Part shown: positions 17,450 to 29,971 of the stretch, piece after piece
How positions within the stretch are numbered: the stretch's first letter is position 1
Layout of the letters: each line of letters starts with the position of its first letter
NCBI RefSeq assembly: GCF_001644705.1
Contig: NZ_CP015137.1
Span: 4,620,001-4,652,000, forward strand
Length of the DNA stretch: 32,000 bases
From: Dickeya solani IPO 2222
GTDB taxonomy: Bacteria > Pseudomonadota > Gammaproteobacteria > Enterobacterales > Enterobacteriaceae
Reading direction: 5' to 3'
Notes under the pieces: generated by a model
What the model saw: only the letters and a program-made list of their open reading frames with translations
The model's database searches: none
Told to the model about the DNA's origin: nothing
Program-made: the position numbers and the translations under genes

Positions 17450-18541
17450 ATGGGATTCAAATGCGGTATCGTTGGGCTGCCTAACGTGGGTAAATCCACT
17501 CTGTTCAACGCGCTGACCAAAGCCGGCATCGAAGCGGCCAACTTTCCGTTTTGTACTATCGAGCCTAACACCGGCGTAGTGCCGATGCCGGACCTGCGCC
17601 TCGACCAGTTGGCCGAAATCGTCAAACCACAGCGTACCGTCCCCACCACCATGGAGTTCGTGGATATCGCCGGTCTGGTGAAAGGCGCATCCAAAGGCGA
17701 AGGTTTGGGCAACCAATTCCTGACCAACATCCGCGAAACCGAAGCCATCGGCCACGTAGTGCGTTGCTTTGAAAACGACAACATCATTCACGTTTCGGGC
17801 AAGGTCAACCCTGCCGATGATATTGATACCATCAACACTGAGCTGGCGTTGTCGGATCTGGACACCTGTGAACGCGCGCTGCATCGCGTACAGAAGAAAG
17901 CCAAAGGTGGGGATAAAGACGCGAAAGTTGAACAAGCCGCGCTGGAAAAATGTCTGCCGCAGTTGGAAAACGCCGGTATGCTGCGCGCGCTGGATCTCAG
18001 CGCGGAAGAGAAAGCGGCGATCCGCTATCTGAGCTTCCTGACCCTTAAGCCAACGATGTACATTGCCAACGTGAATGAAGACGGCTTCGAGAACAACCCC
18101 TATCTGGATCAGGTTCGCGAAATCGCAGCTAAAGAAGGCTCCGTGGTAGTGCCGGTCTGTGCCGCCGTTGAATCTGACATTGCTGAACTTGATGATGAAG
18201 AGCGCGATGAATTCATGGCCGAGCTGGGTCTGGAAGAGCCAGGCTTAAACCGCGTAATCCGCGCGGGTTATGAATTGCTGAACCTGCAAACCTACTTCAC
18301 CGCTGGCGTAAAAGAAGTCCGCGCCTGGACCATCCCGGTCGGCGCCACTGCCCCGCAGGCAGCCGGTAAAATCCACACCGACTTCGAAAAAGGTTTTATC
18401 CGCGCCCAGACCATCGCCTTTGACGATTTCATCACTTACAAAGGTGAACAAGGCGCTAAAGAAGCCGGGAAAATGCGTTCAGAAGGGAAAGAATATATCG
18501 TTAAAGATGGCGATATTATGAACTTCCTGTTTAACGTCTAA
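17450..18541 (+). CDS. ychF: Redox-regulated ribosome-binding ATPase YchF (Obg-like)
   Basis: 363 aa with the G1 motif GLPNVGKST, and conserved NVNE and C-terminal TGS/MoaD-like regions. It is highly similar to E. coli YchF. Confidence 0.97.
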
Positions 18542-18600
18542 TTTGCTTCTGTTGTCTTCATGAGGTTTCACTGAATCTCATGAATGTCGACAAACCCATA

Positions 18601-18632
18601 AAATCCACGCAGTTGCGTGGATTTTTCTTTTT
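18601..18632 (+). terminator. ychF rho-independent terminator
   Basis: Stem aaatccacgc / gcgtggattt with a 4-nt loop, followed by ttcttttt. It starts 60 nt after the ychF stop and marks the end of the conserved backbone. Confidence 0.7.
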
Positions 18633-18670
18633 ATGGCGTCTCATTTCATCTCATGGCAGCGCAGTCAAAA

Positions 18671-18723
18671 ATGAGTACAGGCATGAGTACAATCAGTTTC
18701 CATCTTCATTTTTGGTGAGTACA
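18671..18723 (+). repeat. Three direct copies of TGAGTACA just upstream of the integrase gene (possible integrase arm-type or att-proximal sites)
   Basis: aTGAGTACA at 18671-18679, aTGAGTACA at 18683-18691 and gTGAGTACA at 18715-18723. Additional ATGAG/CTCAT motifs occur at 18559-18584 and 18639-18656. Confidence 0.4.
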
Positions 18724-18754
18724 TAGCGGTATAAGAAATAGACAAGGACTCGCT

Positions 18755-19924
18755 ATGCTCACTGATACGCAATGCCGCACTGCTAAGCCGAAAAAAACTC
18801 TATCGACTCAATGACTTCAACGATCTCTATCTCGAAGTGAAACCCAACGGCAAAAAGGCATGGCGCTATCGGTTTAAGCTCAACGGTAAATCCAGCATGT
18901 TCGCATTGGGTGAGTATCCAGCGGTAAAACTTGCCGAAGCGCGGGAGAAATGTGAGCAAGCGCGTAAGCAAGTCACTGAGGGAGTCAACCCGGCACAGGC
19001 TAGAGAAGATCCGCAAGGTTAACGATGCATCCAACACCTTTGAGCTCATCGCCAAAGAGTGGTTGCAGATGAAAGACTGGGCCGAAATCACCAAAACGCG
19101 CCGTCTTGATATGCTGGAGCGTGTGGTTTTCCCCGCTATCGGCAAACTTCCTATCAGAGAAATCACCCCGCATCACACTCTCAAAATACTTCAGGAAACC
19201 GCTAAACGCGGCGCACCGACCGTGGCCGCTGAAGCCCGCCGCACTATTTCATCGGTTTTTGAGCTGGCGGTGGCAACGCTCAGAGCAGACAGCGATCCTG
19301 TCTGGCCTGTACGTAAGGCACTTCCGGCAAACAAGACGCAGCACAAACAGGCATTGAATCCGCAGCAAGTCGGGAAACTATTAAGCTGTTTTGACAATAG
19401 TCGTGGCTCATACCAGGTTAACTATTGCATGTGGCTAATGTGATGAACACTGGCGCGGCCAGCCGAAGTCACCGAAGCGGAATGGGTAGAATTCGATCTC
19501 GATAATGCACTGTGGACCATTCCGGCAACACGAATGAAAGCCCGCAGAGAACACGTTATTCCCCTTCCCTCCCAAGCCGTCAGCATGCTCAGAACACTAC
19601 AGGGGTTAACCGGGCATCGACTGCACCTCTTTCCGGGCCGAGATAACCCACGCGGCCCGATGACATCGCACTCGCTGCGCCAGCTACTTAAAAGCCTCGG
19701 CTGGAATGGAACTTACAGCCCACATGCCACCCGAACTACAGGCAGCACACGTTTAAACGAGATGGGCTATCGGCCTGATGCTATCGAAGCTCAGCTTGCC
19801 CATGCTGATACCAATAATGTGAGGCGCACGTATAACCACGCGACTTATCTTGATGAACGCAAAGTTATTGCAGGATTGGGCAGATAAGCTTGATGGGTGG
19901 GTACAGGCCACTGTCGAGGTATAA
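18755..19924 (+). pseudogene. int: P4/CP4-57-type tyrosine integrase, inactivated by 3 frameshifts and a tandem in-frame stop
   Basis: The pieces read MLTDTQCRTAKPKK|LYRLNDFNDLYLEVKPNGKKAWRYRFKLNGKSSMFALGEYPAVKLAEAREKCEQARKQVTEGVNPAQA|LEKIRKVNDASNTFELIAKEW...YCMWLM**TLARPAEVTEAEWVEFDL...SPHATRTTGSTRLNEMGY...VRRTYNHATYLDERKV|DWADKLDGWVQATVEV*. The lesions are: an A7 tract at 18791-18797, a frameshift near 18995-19003, an in-frame TGA TGA at 19441-19446, and a roughly 2-bp deletion near 19865-19872. The HxxR and Y catalytic contexts are still recognisable. Confidence 0.85.
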
Positions 19925-19953
19925 TTTCAGCAGCGCGGGTACTGACTCGGCGT

Positions 19954-19959
19954 TATAAT
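19954..19959 (+). promoter_or_regulatory. Consensus -10 hexamer (TATAAT) upstream of the Fic gene
   Basis: A perfect TATAAT lies 40 nt upstream of ATG 19999, in the 75-bp gap after the reconstructed integrase stop. There is no good -35 element. Confidence 0.3.
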
Positions 19960-19998
19960 TTTGCTATTACCCATGTCTCACCAATTCAGGGTTTTTAC

Positions 19999-20616
19999 AT
20001 GAGCCGATACCATGTTTCCAGTAGTGAAGGTCAATATGAGAAAGACTCTGGTGAACAGGTTTTATCCAATAAATTGAGCATATCCGATTCTGATGAGATT
20101 GACGGTGCTGAGCTGGTACTTCTGGAACAACTTTATCATTCTGTTTTTGAAGAGCAGTTCCCGCTGGGGCAGATTACCGTAAATACGCTGAAAAGCTGGC
20201 ATCGTCGTTGGTTAGGTAACATCTACGAATGGGCGGGACATGAAAGGACGGTAAATATCAGCAAAGGTGGCTTTATGTTCGCCCCGTCTGCACAATTGCC
20301 AAAATTACTGCACGAATTTGACACTAAATACCTGGCCCGTTATACGCCCTGTGCCAGCATGAGCAAAGAGCAACTCATTGAAGCTATTGCCATAATCCAC
20401 GTAGAGCTGATCCTCATTCATCCCTTCAGAGAGGGAAACGGTCGCTTATCACGACTTTTAGCCGATGTGATGGCGGTTCAGGGAGGATACAAACCCTTGG
20501 ATTACCAAAGCTGGGAGCAGAATAAGACAGAATATATTGCGGCTATCCATGCTGGTATGGCAATGGATTATATGCCGATGAAGCACTGGGTGGGATTGGC
20601 GTTAAGTAATGATTAA
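19999..20616 (+). CDS. Fic/DOC-family protein (putative AMPylase / NMP- or phospho-transferase), 205 aa
   Basis: The canonical Fic active-site motif HPFREGNGRLSR is encoded at 20419-20454 (HxFx[D/E]GNGRxxR). I place the start at ATG 19999 (MSRYHVSSSEGQYEK...). The ORF-track GTG at 19897 would overlap the integrase 3' end. The G+C content is visibly lower than in the backbone. Confidence 0.85.
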   Translation: MSRYHVSSSEGQYEKDSGEQVLSNKLSISDSDEIDGAELVLLEQLYHSVFEEQFPLGQITVNTLKSWHRRWLGNIYEWAGHERTVNISKGGFMFAPSAQLPKLLHEFDTKYLARYTPCASMSKEQLIEAIAIIHVELILIHPFREGNGRLSRLLADVMAVQGGYKPLDYQSWEQNKTEYIAAIHAGMAMDYMPMKHWVGLALSND

Positions 20617-20834
20617 CGGCTCAATCCCCGTACTTAGCAGGAATTTTGTGAATAGTGTTCAGTTAAGTTTAGCTGGTGTGACCTGCTCCCCAATGAGATA
20701 CACACTGAGGTGTAAGAGCAACGTCCGGCCGAGCACAAAACAGATTGTCAGATTAACTACATACTGTAGCCAAAATCCGAACCCATTCAGAAATAGAACT
20801 TAAGCATAATAACAATTTCCCTGAAAGAACGCCG

Positions 20835-20868
20835 TGCCGGTAAACATAATCCTCTACATCTACCGGCA
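20835..20868 (-). terminator. Hairpin just downstream of the giant gene stop (tentative terminator)
   Basis: 8-bp stem tgccggta / taccggca with an 18-nt loop, 8 nt past the TAA stop (20876-20878 on the minus strand), followed on the minus strand by gttctttc. Confidence 0.35.
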
Positions 20869-20875
20869 GCCTGAA

Positions 20876-23800
20876 TTATGCATCCAGAGGATAAGCTCGC
20901 ATCACCGCTTCGATTCGCTCTCGGGCACTACTCGTAACACGTTTAAATCCGAACCCTTTCGCAATTTCGGCAGCTTTATCCTCGCCATGGACTTTATCCA
21001 CCATGGGCACAATCTCCTCATAAGCGATTTCATTCATAGAACGCATATCATCATCTGTCTCAGGGGAACGTGCTATATGCCAACCGTCACTTTGTTGCTG
21101 GGAAATCCAGACAAAATCTCCGTCAATTTTGTCTGCTTTGATAAAGTGATGTTTGTCGATTATCTCCAGCACTCGTGTCCTAATTAACCGCCCTGCTCGG
21201 CCGAAGCCATGGAGGCGAGCAATACGTTGTACCAGCAAGGAATCCAATATTGGAGCCTCCTGCTCAAGCGTATGCGTAACTAATTGGCGCAATGTGTCCT
21301 CATACTCATCGGCGTAGAAGTGTTCAGCATCAATCATTGATGTAAACGCAGAGAAATCAGTCTGTCTGTAGACAAAACGATCGCTAGCCTGAGCAACATC
21401 AGACGTGATGTCGTATTTGTGCGCTATTTTGCGCTCGTAGATGACTGACTCGTCATTGGCAGCAGCAACGGTGACCACCTCATCTGGAGGATCAGAAAGA
21501 ACATCGTTAATTTCCCCGTTGACTGACAATGAAGTCATCTCTTCTGCGTCACTCTTCGGCTCATCATCGCACTCAGTAGTATCAACTTCCCTGACGGCAT
21601 TTTTCTCGACAAGCTGACTTTCAAGTGCTCGTGATGCTTCCAACAACGCTTCTATCTCGGCATGAAGGCGTTCAAGTGAGCCTTGTTTATCAATCCACCA
21701 ATCAGTGGACCACACCCGCACAAGTTTCCAGCCAAGACCGAGCAGAACCGCACTACGAACCTTATCCCTATCTCTGGCTGTTGCAGCACTGTGATAGCTT
21801 GCGCCATCGCACTCCACCCCGACGAGATAATCTCCAGGATGATCAGGATGTACGATTCCTAGATCGATACGGAAACGTGACACACCGATTTGTGGTACGA
21901 CATTCCATCCTTTCTGGCGCAATCCATTAGCGACCGCTTCCTCAAAGGGAGATTCATATCCCCCCAGGGAGCCTCTAATCGCTTGTGCCAACGCGACCGG
22001 TCCTCGCTGAGCAAATTCAATGAAGTGTTTGAGGTCTTGCACCGCACGAGCGCTTGTGCGGTTGAGATCAATCAAAGATGGGTCGAACGACGTGAAGAGC
22101 AGCATCTCACACCTTGCACGCGTGATAGCTACATTCAAGCGGCGCCATCCCCCTTCTTTATTCAACGGACCAAAGTTCATCGACATGGTATTGGCATCTG
22201 CGGCGGTTGGCCCGTAGCAGATCCCCAGCATGATAAGATCACGCTCATCACCTTGGACAGTCTCTAAGTTTTTAACTATCACGGGTTCCGCTAAATCGTC
22301 CTGAAAATAAGCTTCAATAGAGGGATTCTGCTGTCGCGCTCTGTCTAGCAGGTCAGAAATAAGTCTCTGCTGATCGCTATTTAACGTAATAATGCCGATT
22401 GAGCGCCTCGACTTAATGAATTCAGGATCAGTCAAACGTTTAACGGTTTCAGCTACAATGGCTTCAGCTTCTGCCTGATTGTGTCGCCCCTTGCCTTTAG
22501 CATAAAGACCATCAATTTTACGCCACTCCACCATGCTCGATTTCGTTTGAGCAGCGGGAAATGTGATGAGGTTGCTGCCGTAATAGCGGTGGTTGGAGAA
22601 AGCAATCAAGCTTTCATGACGACTGCGGTAATGCCAGCTCAAGCTGTGGTTATAAATTCCCGCCGCCAGACATTCATCCAGAATGCTTTCCATATCTTCT
22701 TCTGTATCATCTTCCGCATCTGTCTCCCCTCGGCCAAAGAAGTTGGTAGGTGGCATCTGACGTGGATCGCCTGCAATCACCACCTGTTTCCCTCGGGCAA
22801 TGGACCCAACCGCATCCCATGGCGTAATCTGAGATGCTTCATCGAATATCACGAGATCAAACTGGGATTGATTGGCAGGAAGATATTGTGCTATCGATAA
22901 CGGACTCATTAGCATACAGGGAGCCAATGTTGACATGGCACTTCCCATTTCCGTCGCCAACTGGCGGATGGGTTTATGCCGCCGAGATTTTTGCAACTCG
23001 TGTTTTAATACACCATACCCCCCAATCTTACCCACATCGTTCTTGGCGGGAATATGTCCACACAGCTTCGCTCGGATGTAACGCACCGCCAATTGAGACA
23101 ATCGCTCATCCTGCTTACGGTATGCCTCAATATCACTCATATGCTCTGCGGGTACGAAATTACGCAAAAGCGGTTCGGCATCGATTACCCATGCAGCGAA
23201 CCAACGCGCGTAGGCGGTCTCAAAAGTATCAACAACCTGGCCTTCTGGAATTTCTTTTCTTGCCATGACTTCCGCCAGCGGTTGTAGGCCAATCACATTG
23301 GCTTCATCCCGCACACGGCACCAGTCGCACCACGATTTAAGCGCTGCTGGTTTGTTAACAATACCCACTGCGGTTTCACGCAACAGAGTGATCTCATTTT
23401 CATTAGATGGCTGATGGCCTAGCAGCGTGCTAAAACGCGTCGCCGTGTTGTCGAAATCAGTGATAGCAGATTTGAGGCGTGCCAAGCGAATGGCAAGATT
23501 TCCATCCTTGTCCAATAAGTCATTAGAATCGACAATCAGCGTGGAAACAGAAGCGCGAAGTTCTGCGAGATGCGACGAGGAAGTTGCCATTGCACTCATC
23601 TTCGTACGAATGAGCTCGGAGAGCGACATTGCCTGTGCAAGTCGCGTCAAATCACTATTTCGACTATCCCAACCTGGCATATCCTGTATATCGGCAGAGC
23701 ATCCCTCTAGTGCAGAGATAAGCTCTTTTATCTTTCTAAGCGTTATGAGATCGCGAACAACATCAGGGCTGCCTGATGCTCCGCCTTGCGTTGCTAAATC

Positions 23801-26794
23801 AGCAGTGACTTTCTTTTTCGCCATCGAGGCAAAGAACCAAAGCTTTTTCTCCGCCTGCTTCCAGTCATTTTCAATTTGTTCGAGATTAATACGGTTATAA
23901 AGTTCAGCGGTGTAAGTTACAGAAAGGTTTTTCTCCTCCGTTCGGAACGCGTCAACCAGTCCCATGGCACGCTGTGCTGTACTTATCTTCGTCGCCACGT
24001 TGGGAGAAAACATGAATCGGAGATCAACATTATGCGCCGTTAGCAATAACCCCACGAATTCAATTAATTTATTGACTTCACGTAGCCCAGAGCTAACCGC
24101 TGTCAAATGAGTGATATCCTGGACGTCGCGCAGCCCAGACTCTACATTATCAATGCTCTTGGGTATTTCATGCGCTACGGCGACCAGCCTTTCCTGCCAT
24201 CCGTTTGACCACTCCGTACGAGAGATGTAACCGAACACACCATCCAATTCTCTTGCTGTCCGGCTATTGAGGTCGAGTCGACGCGCAACATCACGAAATC
24301 GAGTCATCTCATCCCGATCATGGTGAGTGCCCGCTGGCCACTGCATTTTGGGCGTAGCCTCATCTGCATCACGAATGACTCGCCCTATCGCCTGATGAAC
24401 GGTAAGCCCATTTGGCCAGATCTTATGCAGGACGCTAACAACACCATTCAGCTTATCGCGCAAACGCTGCGCTTCCCGCCCTTCTGCCAACCACTCATCT
24501 GCTGAAAGGACATCCCTTGTGTCCCATGCCCGCTCAAGTTGCTTTAAGAAATCTACTTTTGAGGTTTTACTTGAATGAAGTTCAACGCAAAATTCACCCA
24601 ATCCCTTTTCCTCAAGACGACGGTACACCACGTCCAGCGCGGCTCTTTTTTCGGCAACAAACAAGACCCGCCGACCTAGCGCAAGATTATGTGCGATCAT
24701 ATTAGCGATAGTCTGGGATTTACCGGTTCCTGGTGGGCCATCAAGGACGAAGTTTTTTCCATTAGCGGAAGCAGCAATTGCAGCAATCTGCGAAGAGTCA
24801 GCAGGCAGAGGCAAAAATAGTTCCGTCGCTTTTACCTTACTGTCCAAATCCTTCGCGGACACAAACTCACCATCCGATGCCAGCATCTCACCGCCACTAC
24901 CGCGTTCAAGGAGACATTTTACTACTGCGTTTTGCATTAGCTGAGCAGACCGCTCGACCAGATCTTTCCACATCAGATATTTAGCAAATGAGAACGTACC
25001 AATGATCAGTTCGGGGACAACTTCGAAGCCGGGAATATCTCTTACGGCACGTCTTACCGTATTCCATATACCTGGAACGTCAATCCCGGACTCATCAGTG
25101 GGTAACTCACCGTCGAGTCCAGGAATTGATAATGAAAAATCATGGCGAAGCAATTCAAGTAGCGTGAGGTTAAAACGCGGTTCGTCCTCCAACATACGCA
25201 TCGTGACCCCGGATAAGGCACTTTTGCGCTCAAGCTGGATGGGCAGCAGAATCAATGGTGCTGAATAGGCTTGAGGTTCATCGGCACTTTTTTTCCATTT
25301 CAGAAAACCAATCGCCAGAAAGAGTGTATTTGATCCACCTTCGTCTATGTCGTTGCGCGCCTTTCGGTAGAGTTCAACGAGTAACGCCTCGAGTTTTTCC
25401 TTTACATCTGTCGCGAGTACTTCGCCTCGCGACAACACATCCCGAGCATACTCATCATACAGACTTTCACTATTCTGCTGCTGATAAAGATCTGCATCCC
25501 GCCCCGCTGATTCAAGGTTTGGCATTGGAACGATACGTATGCGTTTACCTTCCGCTAATTTATCCTCTAACGCAGCAGGGTCCAGGCAAAGTAATCTCAC
25601 ACTTTTCGATTTTGCTGGCAGATGGAGAAGCCTATTACGGGTCGTGAGATCAAGCAGTTTTCGTTGCCATACAGCGAGTTTCCCCGCGGGGGCGCTTGAC
25701 GTTTCGTTCGGTATGTCTACATCAAATGAAGGAAGATTCGGTGCTTCTTCTAACGCTTCGTTAATAGTTTCAGAGGCATCGTCTCGTCGCGTTACCGCCT
25801 CTTGTGGCTTCGTTTCTGCCAGCGCAAGTGGACGAATACGTTGCATCCTTGCTCTGCGAATATCCACAGCCACAATAAAATCATGATCTGTCAGTTGGCT
25901 TCTTGCGGTTTCAATGGCCTGAGTGAATGTAGGAACAATCGGTTTTGTTACCAGTGTCGTTTCAAAGACAACCATTTCCTGCAAATCAATCCGTTTGCGA
26001 ATTGCAGAAACATCTTCGGTAAGCAGATTAGAGAACTCCTGCGGTTGCAGCCATACCCCGACAAAAGCATGCCCTTCGGTAAAGACAACAACCGGGTTCA
26101 TTCCCAATTGCTCGATAGCAGCAGCAAAAAGTAATGCGCTGTCCAGGCAGGTGGCAACCATACCATCTAATATCGCTGAGGGGGTACGAATCTTCTGCCC
26201 TTGAGTTTCAAAACTGGCAGGGGGAAGCGCGTAGCTCAGTTTCAAGCTGCCTATTGCCGACCATAATGCAGAAGTAAGCTCCCAACTACGCCTCCTTGAT
26301 TCAGCCGTATATCCATCAAGTGAATCTTTTTTACCTGCTCGGCGTAATACATCTGAGGTTGTCTTTAGCACCTTATCGACGGCGATATCATTCGGCATAA
26401 CGAAAGCGGCGATTAATTCGGACATCCCGACGCCGCCCCACTCGTTTTTCGCCAAAACTTCGATGGGATAGCTCGCGGTAGCCAGCGTTGTATCATCACC
26501 AGCAAGTGTCAGAATCAATTCACCTCTGACACTTTCAGATAAAGAGAAAAGGTAATCCGCATTTAGACGCGCATCGCGATCTGAAATTTCCAATTCATCA
26601 CCGCGCGTTAGTCGGTCTAAATGCCACGTTTTAGGTTCAAGGAAAGAAGGTGACGACGTTAATGTGAGAGTCAGATCTTCAAAATCAGTTTCACTACCAT
26701 TATTTATTTTTAACTCACGTACAATGGGTACTGCATTCTGATGTGACGCGAAGCCAACCTTGCTGGTGAAGATCGCGGCCAATGTGATACTCAT
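20876..26794 (-). CDS. Giant (1,972-aa) multidomain SF1 Upf1-like helicase / PD-(D/E)xK-type endonuclease fusion with an N-terminal transglutaminase-like module (DUF4011...DUF3320-type architecture)
   Basis: This is one uninterrupted ORF. An AGGAG RBS lies 6 nt before ATG 26794; the ORF-track start is GTG 26797. Residue numbers below follow the 1,973-aa track translation. (1) aa 205-285: a Cys/His core, ATC217LDSALLFAAAIEQLGMNPVVVFTEGH243AFVGVWL...VVFE279TT. (2) aa 375-610: WQRKLLDLTTRNRLLHL and GGSNTLFLAIGFLKW, which are DUF4011-like hallmarks. (3) Walker A GPPGTGK693S (nt 24716-24739), motif Ia VLFVAEKRAALD, then a ~550-aa helical insert, motif II DLVIFDEASQ (aa 1314-1323), GDPRQMPP, YRSRHESLIAFSN, VQGDERD and RRLNVAITRAR. 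(4) aa 1612-1705: RID1645LGIV...YLVGVE1662CD1664GASYH...RDRDKVR...LGW.LVRVW, which is Vsr/DUF559-like. (5) An acidic linker followed by a C-terminal ~170-aa DUF3320-like tail. Confidence 0.92.
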   Translation of the reverse strand: MSITLAAIFTSKVGFASHQNAVPIVRELKINNGSETDFEDLTLTLTSSPSFLEPKTWHLDRLTRGDELEISDRDARLNADYLFSLSESVRGELILTLAGDDTTLATASYPIEVLAKNEWGGVGMSELIAAFVMPNDIAVDKVLKTTSDVLRRAGKKDSLDGYTAESRRRSWELTSALWSAIGSLKLSYALPPASFETQGQKIRTPSAILDGMVATCLDSALLFAAAIEQLGMNPVVVFTEGHAFVGVWLQPQEFSNLLTEDVSAIRKRIDLQEMVVFETTLVTKPIVPTFTQAIETARSQLTDHDFIVAVDIRRARMQRIRPLALAETKPQEAVTRRDDASETINEALEEAPNLPSFDVDIPNETSSAPAGKLAVWQRKLLDLTTRNRLLHLPAKSKSVRLLCLDPAALEDKLAEGKRIRIVPMPNLESAGRDADLYQQQNSESLYDEYARDVLSRGEVLATDVKEKLEALLVELYRKARNDIDEGGSNTLFLAIGFLKWKKSADEPQAYSAPLILLPIQLERKSALSGVTMRMLEDEPRFNLTLLELLRHDFSLSIPGLDGELPTDESGIDVPGIWNTVRRAVRDIPGFEVVPELIIGTFSFAKYLMWKDLVERSAQLMQNAVVKCLLERGSGGEMLASDGEFVSAKDLDSKVKATELFLPLPADSSQIAAIAASANGKNFVLDGPPGTGKSQTIANMIAHNLALGRRVLFVAEKRAALDVVYRRLEEKGLGEFCVELHSSKTSKVDFLKQLERAWDTRDVLSADEWLAEGREAQRLRDKLNGVVSVLHKIWPNGLTVHQAIGRVIRDADEATPKMQWPAGTHHDRDEMTRFRDVARRLDLNSRTARELDGVFGYISRTEWSNGWQERLVAVAHEIPKSIDNVESGLRDVQDITHLTAVSSGLREVNKLIEFVGLLLTAHNVDLRFMFSPNVATKISTAQRAMGLVDAFRTEEKNLSVTYTAELYNRINLEQIENDWKQAEKKLWFFASMAKKKVTADLATQGGASGSPDVVRDLITLRKIKELISALEGCSADIQDMPGWDSRNSDLTRLAQAMSLSELIRTKMSAMATSSSHLAELRASVSTLIVDSNDLLDKDGNLAIRLARLKSAITDFDNTATRFSTLLGHQPSNENEITLLRETAVGIVNKPAALKSWCDWCRVRDEANVIGLQPLAEVMARKEIPEGQVVDTFETAYARWFAAWVIDAEPLLRNFVPAEHMSDIEAYRKQDERLSQLAVRYIRAKLCGHIPAKNDVGKIGGYGVLKHELQKSRRHKPIRQLATEMGSAMSTLAPCMLMSPLSIAQYLPANQSQFDLVIFDEASQITPWDAVGSIARGKQVVIAGDPRQMPPTNFFGRGETDAEDDTEEDMESILDECLAAGIYNHSLSWHYRSRHESLIAFSNHRYYGSNLITFPAAQTKSSMVEWRKIDGLYAKGKGRHNQAEAEAIVAETVKRLTDPEFIKSRRSIGIITLNSDQQRLISDLLDRARQQNPSIEAYFQDDLAEPVIVKNLETVQGDERDLIMLGICYGPTAADANTMSMNFGPLNKEGGWRRLNVAITRARCEMLLFTSFDPSLIDLNRTSARAVQDLKHFIEFAQRGPVALAQAIRGSLGGYESPFEEAVANGLRQKGWNVVPQIGVSRFRIDLGIVHPDHPGDYLVGVECDGASYHSAATARDRDKVRSAVLLGLGWKLVRVWSTDWWIDKQGSLERLHAEIEALLEASRALESQLVEKNAVREVDTTECDDEPKSDAEEMTSLSVNGEINDVLSDPPDEVVTVAAANDESVIYERKIAHKYDITSDVAQASDRFVYRQTDFSAFTSMIDAEHFYADEYEDTLRQLVTHTLEQEAPILDSLLVQRIARLHGFGRAGRLIRTRVLEIIDKHHFIKADKIDGDFVWISQQQSDGWHIARSPETDDDMRSMNEIAYEEIVPMVDKVHGEDKAAEIAKGFGFKRVTSSARERIEAVMRAYPLDA

Positions 26795-26981
26795 CACAAT
26801 CTCCTATACATCTGTGTAGTCATAAGAACAGCGAAGGCCATTAACCCCCACTTAATAACATGAAGAAATAAAAAATGTTTTTATATGCGCTATACTTAGC
26901 ATAAGTTGCTAATGGTATATCAGAGTAGTTTCACTTAGAATGTCACAGTATTGCTATGATTTCACTCACTTTACTCGAAGT

Positions 26982-27020
26982 AAAATATCATAATATCACT
27001 CATGAATATTATGATGTTTT
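26982..27020. repeat. AT-rich 15-bp-arm palindrome in the non-coding region upstream of the giant gene
   Basis: aaaatatcataatat (26982-26996) - cactcatga - atattatgatgtttt (27006-27020), with 14 of 15 positions complementary. It lies about 190-225 bp upstream of the giant gene start. A second small palindrome, ataaaaa-tg-tttttat, lies at about 26868-26883. Confidence 0.5.
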
Positions 27021-27487
27021 ATCCTCATACAAATGTCTTAAATGGATAATTACCCTAGATTAGCAATAAAATAATCGCCTTCAGCAATTAAATACCAGCA
27101 CGATCAGGAAATAGATTTGTAACCCCCCTGAATTCTAGATTTTGTTTCTAAATAAACCCACTTTGACGTTTTTTGGTTTCTGGTAGAAAATCTACGATGG
27201 ATGACTTGGTTACTCAATGTTCCAGTCTTCTGACCTTCACAATGATGACCGGGGTTTGGAGGTTATTGTAAAGCAAGGCACATAGAAGACACAGCACTAA
27301 GCTTGCTTGGATTTGATCTCAAGCTAGAGATTCGTTCAATCCTTTGGATGCAGGAAATAATTCCATCTTACAGTATTACTTGCTCGAGAGCTCTCTCATG
27401 GCCGCTTCTCACGCAGAGTTTACAGCCAACGCGGCTAGGGCCCATCAGTAACTATGATGCCAACTTCAATACAAGTCGTTGCATTTG

Positions 27488-27658
27488 TCAAACAGCAAGA
27501 CGGAGATGAGCGAACTTCTTGCGAGTTGCCTCAAGTGAAGCTTCAATCTTGGTCGAGGACTGACCTGTCTCTACCGCCGTTGAGGTAGCGACTGAACGGG
27601 CAATATCAGCACGGGATGGCTTAGCATAAGGAACTCGCATTTTTTTTTCGTTGCTCAT
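27488..27658 (-). CDS. Unlisted 56-aa ORF (hypothetical small helical protein, possible antitoxin-like)
   Basis: The ORF is below the ORF-track size cutoff. On the minus strand, ttttcAGGAGccATGATGAGC... encodes MSNEKKMRVPYAKPSRADIARSVATSTAVETGQSSTKIEASLEATRKKFAHLRLAV*. The AGGAG RBS lies 5 nt before ATG 27658 (an alternative ATG is at 27661). An extended -10 promoter lies 50 nt upstream. The stop is TGA at 27490-27488. Confidence 0.5.
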   Translation of the reverse strand: MSNEKKMRVPYAKPSRADIARSVATSTAVETGQSSTKIEASLEATRKKFAHLRLAV

Positions 27659-27707
27659 CATGGCTCCTGAAAATCAGAATTTTTAGGCTCAAAACCACCC
27701 TGTAAAC

Positions 27708-27736
27708 ATTATACCAAGTTTTCCGCATAGCTTCAC
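27708..27736 (-). promoter_or_regulatory. Extended -10 promoter (TGgTATAAT) for the 56-aa ORF
   Basis: The minus strand reads GTGAAG-N17-(TGG)TATAAT. The TATAAT is the complement of 27708-27713 and the TGn extension is at 27714-27716. The -35 is weak, which an extended -10 tolerates. The predicted leader to the start codon is about 40 nt. Confidence 0.4.
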
Positions 27737-27853
27737 ATAATCAAACGAGTTTATGTCCTACTGATAGCCCATTTGACCCTGACCCGAAATCCTGTGTCAT
27801 TCAGAAACAGAATTCCGGCATGATCCATACTTCCCTGTACGGAGGTGGTGCCG

Positions 27854-28120
27854 ATGAAAAAATCACGATTCACCGAAGAGCAGATTGTCTTCGCCCTGAA
27901 GCAGGCCGAACTGGGTACGCCGGTGCCCGAGGTCTGCCGTAAGCTGGGCATTTCTGATGCCACGTTCTATACGTGGCGCAAGAAATACGGCGGCATTTCG
28001 CCCTCAGAACTGAAGCACATGCGCCAGCTGGAAGAGGAAAACCTGCGGCTGAAGAAACTGGTGGTCGATCTGAGCCTCGACAAGGCGATGCTGCAGGACG
28101 TGCTGGCAAAAAAGACCTGA
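27854..28120 (+). CDS. IS3-family transposase OrfA (HTH)
   Basis: MKKSRFTEEQIVFALKQAELGTPVPEVCRKLGISDATFYTWRKKYGGISPSELKHMRQLEEENLRLKKLVVDLSLDKAMLQDVLAKK is a typical IS3/IS407 OrfA with an HTH and a leucine zipper. A GGAGG RBS lies 8 nt before ATG 27854. Confidence 0.8.
   Translation: MKKSRFTEEQIVFALKQAELGTPVPEVCRKLGISDATFYTWRKKYGGISPSELKHMRQLEEENLRLKKLVVDLSLDKAMLQDVLAKKT
28108..28114 (+). promoter_or_regulatory. IS3-type -1 programmed ribosomal frameshift heptamer A AAA AAG
   Basis: gcA_AAA_AAG_acc lies at the end of orfA. The -1 frame continues KKDLTLARLREWVRELQARYGASERQVCFVL..., which is OrfB. Confidence 0.7.
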
Positions 28121-28590
28121 CGCTGGCACGGCTGCGTGAATGGGTCCGGGAGCTGCAGGCACGTTACGGGGCCAGCGAACGGCAGGTCTGTTTTGTGCTG
28201 CGGATCAGCCGCAGTTCGTTCCGTTATCGCTCTGTGGCGGCCGATGACAGCGCTTTGCGCCTGCGTATCCGTGAGATCACGGAAATCCGCGTGCATTACG
28301 GATACCGGCGGGTTCACATCCTGCTCAGGCGGGAGGGCTGGCGGGATAACCATAAACGCATTTACCGTCTCTACCGTGAGCAGGGACTGTCCCTGCGCTC
28401 AAAAGACCGCATCGCAACAAATCAGCACAACGCCGCCAGCCACAGCCTCAGGGGCTGTATCCAAACCATGTCTGGGGCATGGATTTTGTCTCTGATGCCC
28501 TGTTTGACGGCCGCCGGTTGCGTCTGCTGACGGTGATTGACCTGTATACCCGCGAATGTCTGGGGATCTGTGTCGGGCAGAACCTCGCAG
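28108..28590 (+). pseudogene. IS3-family transposase OrfB, frameshifted and 3'-truncated
   Basis: The -1 frame reads ...HYGYRRVHILLRREGWRDNHKRIYRLYREQGLSLRSK. A 1-nt loss in the A run at 28401-28404 then shifts the frame. Homology resumes in another frame (RPHRNKSAQRRQPQPQGLYPNHVWGMDFVSDALFDGRRLRLLTVIDLYTRECLG) and ends near 28590. Confidence 0.75.
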
Positions 28591-28621
28591 ATACTCAATG
28601 CTGATGTTATGAGCATAATTT

Positions 28622-28682
28622 TTTTTCATAAAAAATGAGAGTTACCTTTGTTGGCATCAGGGCGACACCATCGGTAACTCTC
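28622..28682 (-). terminator. xynA rho-independent terminator
   Basis: The 10-bp stem gagagttacc (28637-28646) / ggtaactctc (28673-28682) is followed on the minus strand by ATTTTTTAT. It lies 48 nt downstream of the xynA stop. Confidence 0.55.
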
Positions 28683-28729
28683 ACGCTTTCAGGCTGATAT
28701 GTCAGATCTGGTCGGGATAATGCAAATGA

Positions 28730-29971
28730 TTATTTACCGACAAAGGTGGTCACACTTAACGGATTCAGCCATACCGTTGCTTTGCCGCTGTTATCAACCT
28801 GAGATGTGCCGCCATATTCAACATTCAGCACTGCTGATGTGCTGTATTTTTCAAATTTACCGACGTTGGCGTTACTGATATTCAGCGACAACATTTGGTC
28901 TGAGTCATTCGTGTTTACAGCAACAATAACCATTTTCCCATCCGAGTTCTTGTAGGCTGTAAGGTGAACATTTGACTGGGGGTTTTCCGTGGCTTGAATA
29001 CGTTGAAATCCAGGGCGAACGAACCTGGCATATTGAGACATAACATAACCACGCTTACTGACCTTGCCATCTTCAGTAAGTAATCCATAGGATCGGCGAA
29101 TATACCACCATACATAAGCATTATAATTTGCAACCATACTGGCATTCAGTTCAGTTGCAACGTCGAGTGCTGATGACCAATTATTAGCAGACTGCTTTGA
29201 GTCAACATAGTGCTCGGTCATCCAAATTTGCTTACCCGCGTTTTGAGCTAAGGGGTACGGTTTCGGCGTTGTGCCATATAAATGGCCCCCTACGATTGCA
29301 ACGTATTTTGATGCATCACTATCATTTAACACTGGGTCAGTTAATTTAGGATTAAATCCTAATGACTCTCCGACAATTATGTTGAGAGAGCCAAATTTAG
29401 ATCCTTGCGATTTGAGATAGTTTTTGAATTCATCACCACTCCATTCGCAAGATTCATAGTCGGGTTTCCAGTCAGGCTCATTTTGTATAGAAATAGCATA
29501 AAGGGAGGCACTGTTAGTCTGCATGTATTTTGAAAAATCCAGCAGGTGCGAGGTATAGGCAGAATAATATGCCGGAAGCAAACGCCCACCGTTTATCAGG
29601 CTGTTGTTGCTTTTCATATGCGCGGGTGGCGTCCAGGGGGTAGCCATTAATTTAGCCCCCAGCGAGACGGCCTGACGCGCACTCGGAACTTGTATATTCC
29701 ATTTATTGGAGTCGGGATCAATTCTTATTCGCATAATTGATAGCCCTATCTGTCCAGCATCATTACCGAATGCAGTATTAATTTGCTCTGTTGTCAGATC
29801 ATTGATCCACCCAGCACCATCCATCCCGCCAAAACCTTGAATTGTCTGGTAATTTATTCTTGCGTCAATCTTCACGGTATCAGCATAGGCAGAAAGCGAT
29901 CCTGCCGTGACTGAAACCACAATAGCCGCTCTCAAACAATGACGAACCCAGCAAGTTACATTCCTATTCAT
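28730..29971 (-). CDS. xynA: Secreted GH30 (subfamily 8) glucuronoxylanase XynA
   Basis: The 413 aa from ATG 29971 (AAGGA RBS 8 nt upstream) are near-identical to my memory of Erwinia chrysanthemi XynA (MN.NV..WVRHCL...YADTVKIDA.NYQ.IQGFGGM...). The catalytic contexts are IQNEPDW (acid/base) and WMTEHY (nucleophile). The ORF-track start at 30052 is an extension. The gene is low in G+C. Confidence 0.93.
   Translation of the reverse strand: MNRNVTCWVRHCLRAAIVVSVTAGSLSAYADTVKIDARINYQTIQGFGGMDGAGWINDLTTEQINTAFGNDAGQIGLSIMRIRIDPDSNKWNIQVPSARQAVSLGAKLMATPWTPPAHMKSNNSLINGGRLLPAYYSAYTSHLLDFSKYMQTNSASLYAISIQNEPDWKPDYESCEWSGDEFKNYLKSQGSKFGSLNIIVGESLGFNPKLTDPVLNDSDASKYVAIVGGHLYGTTPKPYPLAQNAGKQIWMTEHYVDSKQSANNWSSALDVATELNASMVANYNAYVWWYIRRSYGLLTEDGKVSKRGYVMSQYARFVRPGFQRIQATENPQSNVHLTAYKNSDGKMVIVAVNTNDSDQMLSLNISNANVGKFEKYSTSAVLNVEYGGTSQVDNSGKATVWLNPLSVTTFVGK

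Follow-up and report, generated by a model that had tools for sequence, protein, structure and literature searches.

A candidate Fic toxin-antitoxin pair parted by a ProA-family helicase-nuclease gene in a small island of Dickeya solani

A small island sits downstream of pth-ychF in the chromosome of Dickeya solani IPO 2222, within a stretch of 32,000 nucleotides (contig NZ_CP015137.1, positions 4,620,001 to 4,652,000 of the forward strand) which is called the window below. Between a decayed integrase gene and a truncated insertion sequence (IS) it holds three intact reading frames: a Fic-domain protein of 205 amino acids (aa) on the plus strand (19999..20616), a giant helicase-nuclease of 1972 aa, ProA, on the minus strand (20876..26794), and a mini-ORF (a small open reading frame, ORF) of 56 aa, also on the minus strand (27488..27658). 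The genes of Fic and ProA are convergent, with a gap of 259 base pairs (bp) between their stop codons, and 690 bp lie between the ProA start and the mini-ORF stop. The dead integrase, the truncated IS, the three frames, their coordinates and their gaps are all as described in an earlier note on this DNA, in which the three genes were taken for one module. It is argued here, with a probability of roughly 75%, that they form two systems and not one, namely a toxin-antitoxin pair of class I type made of Fic and the mini-ORF, and a separate single-gene system, ProA.

The Fic protein, the mini-ORF and ProA

The Fic protein is recognised by Pfam (Fic, E=2.5e-19) and by the PADLOC model PDC-S04 (PDLC04839), of which it covers 203 of 205 positions (E=7.2e-98). 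Its catalytic motif, HPFREGNGRLSR, is located at residues 141-152 and is invariant across 30 homologues. In the Protein Data Bank (PDB) its sequence comes closest to Fic-1 from the Fic-1/AntF pair (8WT0, E=7e-20), with VbhT next. When the AlphaFold2 (AF2) model was submitted to Foldseek, FICD, EfFic and VbhT were matched with probability 1.0, which confirms the Fic fold, class I not being separable from classes II and III by this comparison. The internal inhibitory motif (S/T)xxxE(G/N) is missing in 27 of 30 members of the family; the three matches stand at non-conserved positions, and in these members a C-terminal S-x-A-L-E-N fits the pattern. Judging by its intact catalytic motif, the protein is most likely an AMP-transferase and a FicT-like toxin. 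Related FicT toxins AMPylate GyrB and ParE. The anti-phage assignment which comes with PDC-S04 is a candidate assignment, and no defence was seen when a Fic of the PDC-S04 type was deleted in its native host, E. coli NILS69 (bioRxiv 10.1101/2024.12.20.629700).

The mini-ORF lies in a frame open from 27488 to 27661. Its second ATG, at 27658, gives the protein of 56 aa, has the better Shine-Dalgarno spacing and agrees with the starts of the homologues. The expression signals are found at 27664..27716 (minus strand) and comprise an extended -10 element, TGgTATAAT (27708-27716), and an AGGAG Shine-Dalgarno sequence (27664-27668). The earlier note had called the mini-ORF promoter-equipped, and this description holds, as the -10 element (TGnTATAAT in general form) recurs in most of nine aligned upstream regions from several genera. 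TATAAT is present in five of these loci and variants in three (TATACT in Klebsiella, TATGAT in Yersinia, TATGCT in Serratia Ag1), Pantoea L023 being poorly aligned over the region; a GGAG-type Shine-Dalgarno sequence is found in most of the nine.

From Enterobacterales, 123 homologues of the mini-ORF were retrieved by protein search; they are 52-91 aa long (most of them 55-57 aa), have about 70-100% identity and are nearly all annotated as “hypothetical”. Of 42 codons, 41 are variable at the third position, 23 at the first and 19 at the second, and the median ratio of nonsynonymous to synonymous substitution rates (dN/dS) in the family is about 0.1. Judged by these alignments, the mini-ORF is a real conserved protein under protein-level purifying selection. 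Its core is RSVATSTAVETG, with Ser26 and Glu30 in R-S-V-A-T-S26-T-A-V-E30-T-G. These two residues are invariant in all 38 partners compared (38/38), where the motif takes the form SxxxE[GN] in 6, SxxxET[G/Q/D] in 30 and SxxxES in 2.

The giant gene has an open frame from 20876 to 26797, and the ATG at 26794 is its likely start, in agreement with gene calls. The protein scores 2171.3 bits, where the equivalog cutoff is 1500, with the NCBIfam model NF058533, “anti-phage protein ProA”, residues 15-1952 being aligned to positions 2-1903 of the 1903 in the model, and it also matches PADLOC PDC-S37, a single-gene candidate, with 1191 bits. The domains called by Pfam are DUF4011, AAA_11/AAA_12 (a Upf1-like superfamily 1 helicase), the Vsr-like nuclease MTES_1575 and DUF3320. 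The Walker A motif reads GPPGTGKS in the translation, and the nearest solved relatives are the helicases Sen1, Upf1 and IGHMBP2. Neither for ProA nor for PDC-S37 was a description found in the literature searched.

Several further observations concern this gene. Residues 1-320 (25835-26794, minus strand) receive no Pfam domain call, and the AF2 model of this part (mean predicted local distance difference test, pLDDT, 75) consists of a beta-sandwich followed by an alpha/beta core, for which all the top places among the PDB matches in Foldseek are taken by transglutaminases (TG2, TG3, factor XIII), at E about 2e-4 over about 120 aligned columns. A weak transglutaminase-like Pfam match (DUF553, E=0.077) was also noted, and Cys216, Asp218 and His242 are invariant in 18 homologues. 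The modelled fold suggests a papain/transglutaminase-like sensor or effector domain. In another D. solani genome (CP051459, locus L006, 10878-16790) ProA is called as five fragments in DNA that is otherwise the same, and several neighbouring genes are broken too, which is more suggestive of indel errors in the assembly than of genuine decay.

Neighbourhoods of the Fic pair and of ProA in other genomes

Relatives of the Fic protein were collected by scanning one genome per species with the Fic alignment, which gave 80 loci (82-32% identity) forming a sample and not an exhaustive set. A homologue of the mini-ORF was detected with an iterated hidden Markov model (HMM) in 54 of them, always on the opposite strand and abutting or overlapping the 3' end of the Fic gene. 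The hosts of these pairs include Proteobacteria (Yersinia, Shewanella), Cyanobacteria (Synechococcus), Nitrospirae, Omnitrophica and the Candidate Phyla Radiation, CPR (Roizmanbacteria). Among the 54 Fic proteins with such a convergent partner, 51 are without an internal inhibitory motif. The remaining 26 loci are divided as follows. In 20 there is a convergent downstream small ORF which carries the canonical S/TxxxE(G/N), for example ASFRIEG, comparable with ASQRLEG of VbhA. In four the motif is found in an upstream co-directional ORF, and the two of these which were run against Pfam (L098 and L100) are YhfG (E=1e-16 and 5e-13). In the last two an internal C-terminal SYYYEG is present, which is the class III arrangement. 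As far as motifs can tell, each Fic has one source only of the inhibitory motif, and in 74 of the 80 loci this source is the convergent downstream gene.

Profile comparison with hhalign links the two kinds of convergent partner. The window mini-ORF family aligned with the canonical convergent family at E=1.4e-4, and the canonical family with VbhA at E=3.3e-4, with the Ser and the Glu in register both times, though these E-values are modest. On these alignments and on its motif, the mini-ORF probably works like FicA, yet it is not filed in the VbhA or YhfG families. The loci of Halomonas and Photobacterium (L098, 9768-9956; L100, 9766-10002) show a classical upstream YhfG-family antitoxin beside a relative of the same Fic. 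By gene order and motif, closely related Fic cores are served by an antitoxin gene that lies upstream in some and is convergent in others, which makes them a useful natural comparison set.

In the relatives, the stop codons of Fic and of the mini-ORF share TTAA or CTAA. The homologue in Serratia marcescens and Klebsiella pneumoniae is located beside mutS, convergent with a Fic of 205 aa and overlapping it by 4 bp, and RefSeq entries of E. coli have the same convergent and overlapping pair in the variable ygbA-mutS region, next to type I restriction-modification (R-M) islands, under the names “Fic/DOC family protein” and “hypothetical protein”. It was also observed in Serratia, Klebsiella and E. 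coli (L009-L020, L185, L186) that the intact pair borders the variable mutS-ygbA region and has type I R-M or other defence cargo for a neighbour, which differs from locus to locus.

In class I Fic toxins, inhibition is exerted by the (S/T)xxxE(G/N) helix of a small protein, whose alpha-inh Glu makes a salt bridge to R2, the Fic motif's second arginine (PMC8401265); in AntF these inhibitory Ser and Glu roles are filled by S24 and E28 (PMC13327609). By analogy, the 56-aa protein would hold Fic inactive by an inhibitory helix supplied in trans. The invariant Glu30 would be the partner of this R2 arginine, and Ser26, likewise invariant, would help to position it, as in VbhA, YhfG and AntF. In the usual form of the pair the converging genes share their stop codons, and they would therefore each have their own promoter and transcripts overlapping in antisense at the 3' ends. 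The earlier note had proposed that a Fic enzyme lacking its own inhibitory helix is coupled with a tiny protein as toxin and antitoxin, and this part of it is strongly supported by the convergent partners in 54 of 80 loci, by the complementary distribution of the motif, which carries the most weight, and by the invariance of Ser26 and Glu30. That the small protein binds and inhibits Fic is something we infer, as we do the target of Fic and the role of the pair, be it island stabilisation or abortive infection.

The giant helicase-nuclease, on the other hand, had been put forward as the third part of the same module, and the co-occurrence check proposed in the earlier note was run on both sides. 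For ProA, 80 metagenomic loci of the family (62-42% identity) were joined with the homologues of Brenneria, Xenorhabdus and a Klebsiella plasmid, giving 83 loci with 873 kb of flanks, again a sample and not all members of the family. A mini-ORF homologue was found in none of the 83. A Fic-domain ORF was found in three, one of them with E=3e-20 at a distance of about 5 kb, the other two being weak matches in longer ORFs which resemble other Fic types. When all flanking ORFs were clustered, no family recurred beside ProA, the largest cluster occurring in 5 of 84 loci. From the other side, tblastn detected no ProA homologue within 10 kb of any of 92 Fic or mini-ORF loci outside D. solani. The closest relatives of ProA, with 69-70% identity in Brenneria and Xenorhabdus, have neither Fic nor mini-ORF; the homologue of Xenorhabdus bovienii (L104, 69% identity) occupies a mutS-adjacent position, likewise without either gene. 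Co-occurrence of the three genes thus fails in these samples, and a third part of the module is not supported. Assessed by its family and its neighbourhoods, ProA is a stand-alone anti-phage gene unrelated to the Fic pair. The case shows that intact defence-type genes can come to lie close together through a single insertion, and that a passenger, here ProA, can be told from a true pair, here Fic and the mini-ORF, by statistics on gene neighbourhoods.

The inserted segment, the island and alternative readings

Homology of the window to relatives which bear the pair ends at 20615/20616, at the Fic stop codon, and resumes at 27495; therefore a segment of about 6.87 kb (20617..27490), made up of ProA and its flanks, entered at exactly the 3'-3' junction, where it now parts the Fic stop codon from that of the mini-ORF. 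A search around this insert for terminal repeats or a target duplication found none. In a convergent pair, no position other than the 3'-3' junction can take up an insertion with both promoters and both frames left intact.

The trio was met in one other place, in a copy of the island with 93-95% identity on a metagenomic scaffold of 551 kb (L101), where ychF, an intact integrase, Fic, ProA (96% identical in aa) and the mini-ORF follow in the same order with no IS. The island genes of D. solani and L101 have 91-95% DNA identity, as compared with 79-86% for pth and ychF, and the synonymous divergence (dS), which is 0.92 for ychF, falls in the range 0.15-0.25 for the three genes Fic, ProA and mini-ORF. 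From these differences it is concluded that a single insertion came first and that the composite island was then transferred horizontally. The occurrence of the trio in D. solani and the L101-type island only points, as far as the compared loci go, to one insertion of about 6.9 kb. On this account the ProA segment would have been inserted once, in one ancestor, at the 3'-3' junction of the pair, and the composite island of integrase, Fic, ProA and mini-ORF would then have spread horizontally, all three genes being kept by purifying selection. The insertion of ProA is accordingly described as a one-off genomic accident which has since been preserved by selection. The earlier note had seen selection on the cargo in the fact that other genes decayed and these three stayed open. 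Between the two island copies dN/dS is lowest in ProA (0.08), followed by Fic (0.13) and the mini-ORF (0.16), and the comparison supports selection on the cargo and does not support functional coupling.

About 320 bp upstream of ProA are common to both copies (26795..27121, minus strand, 87% identity to L101), and the next 366 bp (27122-27487) have no counterpart in L101. As only this segment is shared and travels with ProA, it is suggested from the alignment that ProA carries its own promoter region there. The spacer between the mini-ORF and this segment is non-homologous in the two copies, 366 bp in the window and 744 bp in L101 (8930-9674), where it holds an ORF of 88 aa on the opposite strand. 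A near-perfect palindrome with arms of 16 nucleotides (nt), TAAAATATCATAATAT(9 nt)ATATTATGATGTTTTA, was noticed at 26981-27021, about 190-220 bp upstream of the ProA start and within the segment travelling with ProA, where a regulator may use it as its operator.

The mobility genes of the island are decayed. The integrase pseudogene, of the P4 type of tyrosine integrases (18755..19921, plus strand; Pfam Phage_int_M and Phage_integrase), adjoins ychF and belongs to the island backbone. In tblastn with the intact 393-aa orthologue of L101 as query it is 91% identical, with the match running through frames +2/+3/+1/+2 (three frame changes) and two in-frame stops near 19440. At the other end a truncated IS3-family element (27781..28530, plus strand) abuts the mini-ORF promoter; its gene calls contain HTH_Tnp_1 and HTH_21 only, a DDE domain not having been found in them by Pfam, and homology to the IS-free copy L101 stops at 27768. 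Direct att repeats bounding the island were searched for and none were found, and an Rfam scan of 18400-28800 gave sub-threshold matches only, at the ychF terminator. Further mechanical ORFs of at least 60 aa are present, e.g. 20609-20803 and 27303-27509, without a Pfam family match. The former, of 64 aa and overlapping the Fic stop codon, was considered as a downstream antitoxin and set aside for its composition, which is not protein-like, and its lack of a family match.

In an observation made in passing on 18542-19921, an integrase of the same P4 type (85% DNA identity) adjoins ychF in 669 of 5426 complete E. coli genomes, where the cargo comprises IS elements, a DarT/DarG-like pair and a KAP NTPase. 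Going by these genomes, the integration site beside ychF is a shared hotspot. In about 30 of the E. coli genomes only a 300-bp remnant of the 5' part of Fic is found just past the integrase, and in one of them (L001, 15257-19372) it is cut by IS100. From this recurrent arrangement, the integrase-Fic unit looks like the backbone of the island. The idea that Fic and the mini-ORF bracket the whole cargo of the E. coli ychF islands was considered and rejected, as only the 5' remnants of Fic and no mini-ORF are found there.

Several points weigh against the two-system reading and its toxin-antitoxin pair. The Fic model is of moderate confidence (pLDDT 69), and the N-terminal 27 residues, which contain E/Q-(G/A)-Q, are a low-confidence part of it, so this segment may have a cis-inhibitory role. 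The motif of the mini-ORF is S-T-A-V-E-T-G, in which the Glu is followed by Thr and not by the canonical Gly or Asn. The mini-ORF is recognised neither by Pfam (with E up to 10, and including VbhA PF18495 and YhfG PF10832), nor by NCBIfam or PADLOC, nor in phmmer and profile searches of the PDB, while the Pfam controls (VbhA and two upstream YhfG-type ORFs) were recognised. Compared directly with VbhA by hhalign, the window mini-ORF family gave no significant match, and the chain of homology from one to the other runs through two pairwise comparisons, in which the E-values are about 1e-4 and the probabilities 38-53%. In the window the two genes stand 6.9 kb apart, therefore any ancestral antisense coupling is lost. 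Finally, no terminator was predicted between the mini-ORF and ProA, and the two may be co-transcribed.

Some of these points would suit another explanation, according to which the mini-ORF is some other conserved small protein with no relation to antitoxins, or serves the 3' end of Fic mainly as an antisense or terminator element, and Fic is controlled in cis by its N-terminal E-G-Q. Besides the missing family, PDB and NCBIfam matches and the off-canon E-T-G, it can draw on the antisense transcription implied by the convergent overlap and on residues 1-27 of Fic (19999-20080), where R-Y-x(5-6)-E/Q-(G/A)-Q-(Y/F)-x-x-G-S is conserved at a constant 131 residues before the catalytic His. For this fixed spacing the segment SSSEGQ was considered as a class II inhibitory motif, and it was down-weighted as many members have Gln in place of the Glu or lack it. 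The Glu is Gln in at least 5 of 38 sequences and is for that reason disfavoured as a conserved inhibitory glutamate. Also at odds with the explanation are the protein-level selection on the mini-ORF (dN/dS about 0.1, 41 of 42 codons variable at the third position), its invariant Ser and Glu, spaced and positioned as in VbhA (S20, E24) and AntF (S24, E28; PMC13327609), the canonical SxxxEG carried by distant members of its family, and a distribution mutually exclusive with upstream YhfG and internal class III motifs. This explanation is therefore regarded as improbable. Still less credit is given to a single three-component abortive-infection system, in which the giant protein senses the phage and releases or activates Fic, with the mini-protein as antitoxin. 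The three genes are indeed adjacent, intact and under purifying selection in two island copies, and Fic (PDC-S04) and ProA (PDC-S37) both belong to defence-associated families, but co-occurrence fails both ways, in the 83 ProA loci (mini-ORF in 0, Fic in 3) as in the 92 loci of the Fic pair (ProA in 0). ProA, moreover, has no conserved neighbour and its curated family is that of a single-protein system, the Fic pair has both its members without ProA in 74 of 80 sampled loci, and the arrangement of the trio goes back to one insertion, all of which makes such a system highly improbable.

A further possibility accepts the pair and gives it a task in the island. Toxin-antitoxin pairs stabilise islands, and here the Fic pair would act as an addiction bracket: loss of ProA together with the antitoxin gene would free Fic and kill the cell, so that ProA and the island would be stabilised after decay of the integrase. 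It agrees with this that the composite order with intact ORFs was kept in two lineages which exchanged the island horizontally, and that the pair or its remnants edge variable defence islands elsewhere (the E. coli ychF island, and mutS-ygbA beside type I R-M). Against it, one insertion event is known, with no recurrence which would argue for selection; deletions which also remove Fic would not be counter-selected; and next to an integrase of the same type, some 30 genomes of E. coli have a Fic that was destroyed by IS elements. An addiction bracket is thus judged unlikely, though a little less so than a mini-ORF without antitoxin function. The reading preferred here remains that of a class-I-like pair, Fic and the mini-ORF, into which the independent ProA gene was inserted.

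Comparison with known systems

The closest known systems are the class I FicT/FicA pairs (VbhT/VbhA, EcFicT/YhfG and Fic-1/AntF of Pseudomonas bijieensis; PDB 3SHG, 5JFF, 8WT0). Like these, the pair of the window has a Fic AMP-transferase of about 200 aa with HPFx(D/E)GNGRxxR and without a conserved internal inhibitory motif, and a partner of 50-60 aa with an invariant Ser-x-x-x-Glu about 25-30 residues from the N-terminus (S20/E24 in VbhA, S24/E28 in AntF). The differences lie in the partner and its gene. In contrast to the known pairs, the partner gene is convergent, with overlapping stop codons, and not immediately upstream in one operon; in the window the genes are additionally 6.87 kb apart. 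The proteobacterial clade of the mini-ORF family has E-T-G instead of E-G/N, the canonical motif being carried by 6 of the 38 HMM-detected relatives and by the 20 further convergent ORFs, and the mini-ORF is not matched by the Pfam models of VbhA or YhfG.

No description of a convergent Fic antitoxin was found in the literature searched, where absence is no proof of novelty. It is a tentative proposal, with somewhat less than an even chance of being right, that a FicA-type antitoxin placed tail to tail with its toxin and sharing a stop codon is an undescribed and very widespread architecture (74 of 80 relatives, from Enterobacterales, Bacteroidota, Nitrospirae, Cyanobacteria and CPR). If it is right, the “single-gene” PDC-S04 of PADLOC would be a two-gene system with an antitoxin that is often unannotated, toxin and antitoxin would have separate promoters, with mutual 3' antisense transcription as a built-in regulatory layer, and the shared-stop junction would be a site where a defence gene such as ProA can lodge and leave both genes unbroken. 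A type II pair which spans phyla, converges and shares its stops also departs from the paradigm of the operon with autoregulation and predicts regulation by transcriptional interference. Should the convergent antitoxin be obligate in this large Fic family, which is found with defence islands and is at present scored as a candidate of one gene, cloning or deletion of Fic only would be misleading, as would annotation in which the small ORF is missed or called “hypothetical” and the Fic is classed as one without an inhibitory helix.

A similar situation was reported for SoFic-AS1, in which a Fic defence candidate treated as a single gene has a small downstream ORF that neutralises its toxicity (PMC12249575). 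SoFic differs in having two domains and about 370 aa, and as a class II Fic it carries an N-terminal inhibitory helix of its own (PMC12249575). The window Fic matches the PADLOC SoFic model weakly (E=6.5e-15, as compared with 7e-98 for PDC-S04), and AS1 is likened here by its description and not by sequence. ProA, for its part, has the same architecture as the ProA family and PDC-S37 and is set apart by its location alone. It is a relative and not a member of Hhe (NCBIfam NF042953), with 822.9 bits against a cutoff of 2000 and a match to the C-terminal third only. The island as a whole resembles the integrase-borne defence islands at hotspots such as E. coli ychF and mutS-ygbA, in that it has defence-type cargo and a Fic gene beside the integrase. 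It is distinguished from them by an integrase which is dead, by a far end which is cut by an IS3 remnant, and by a cargo gene which lies inside the putative toxin-antitoxin pair.

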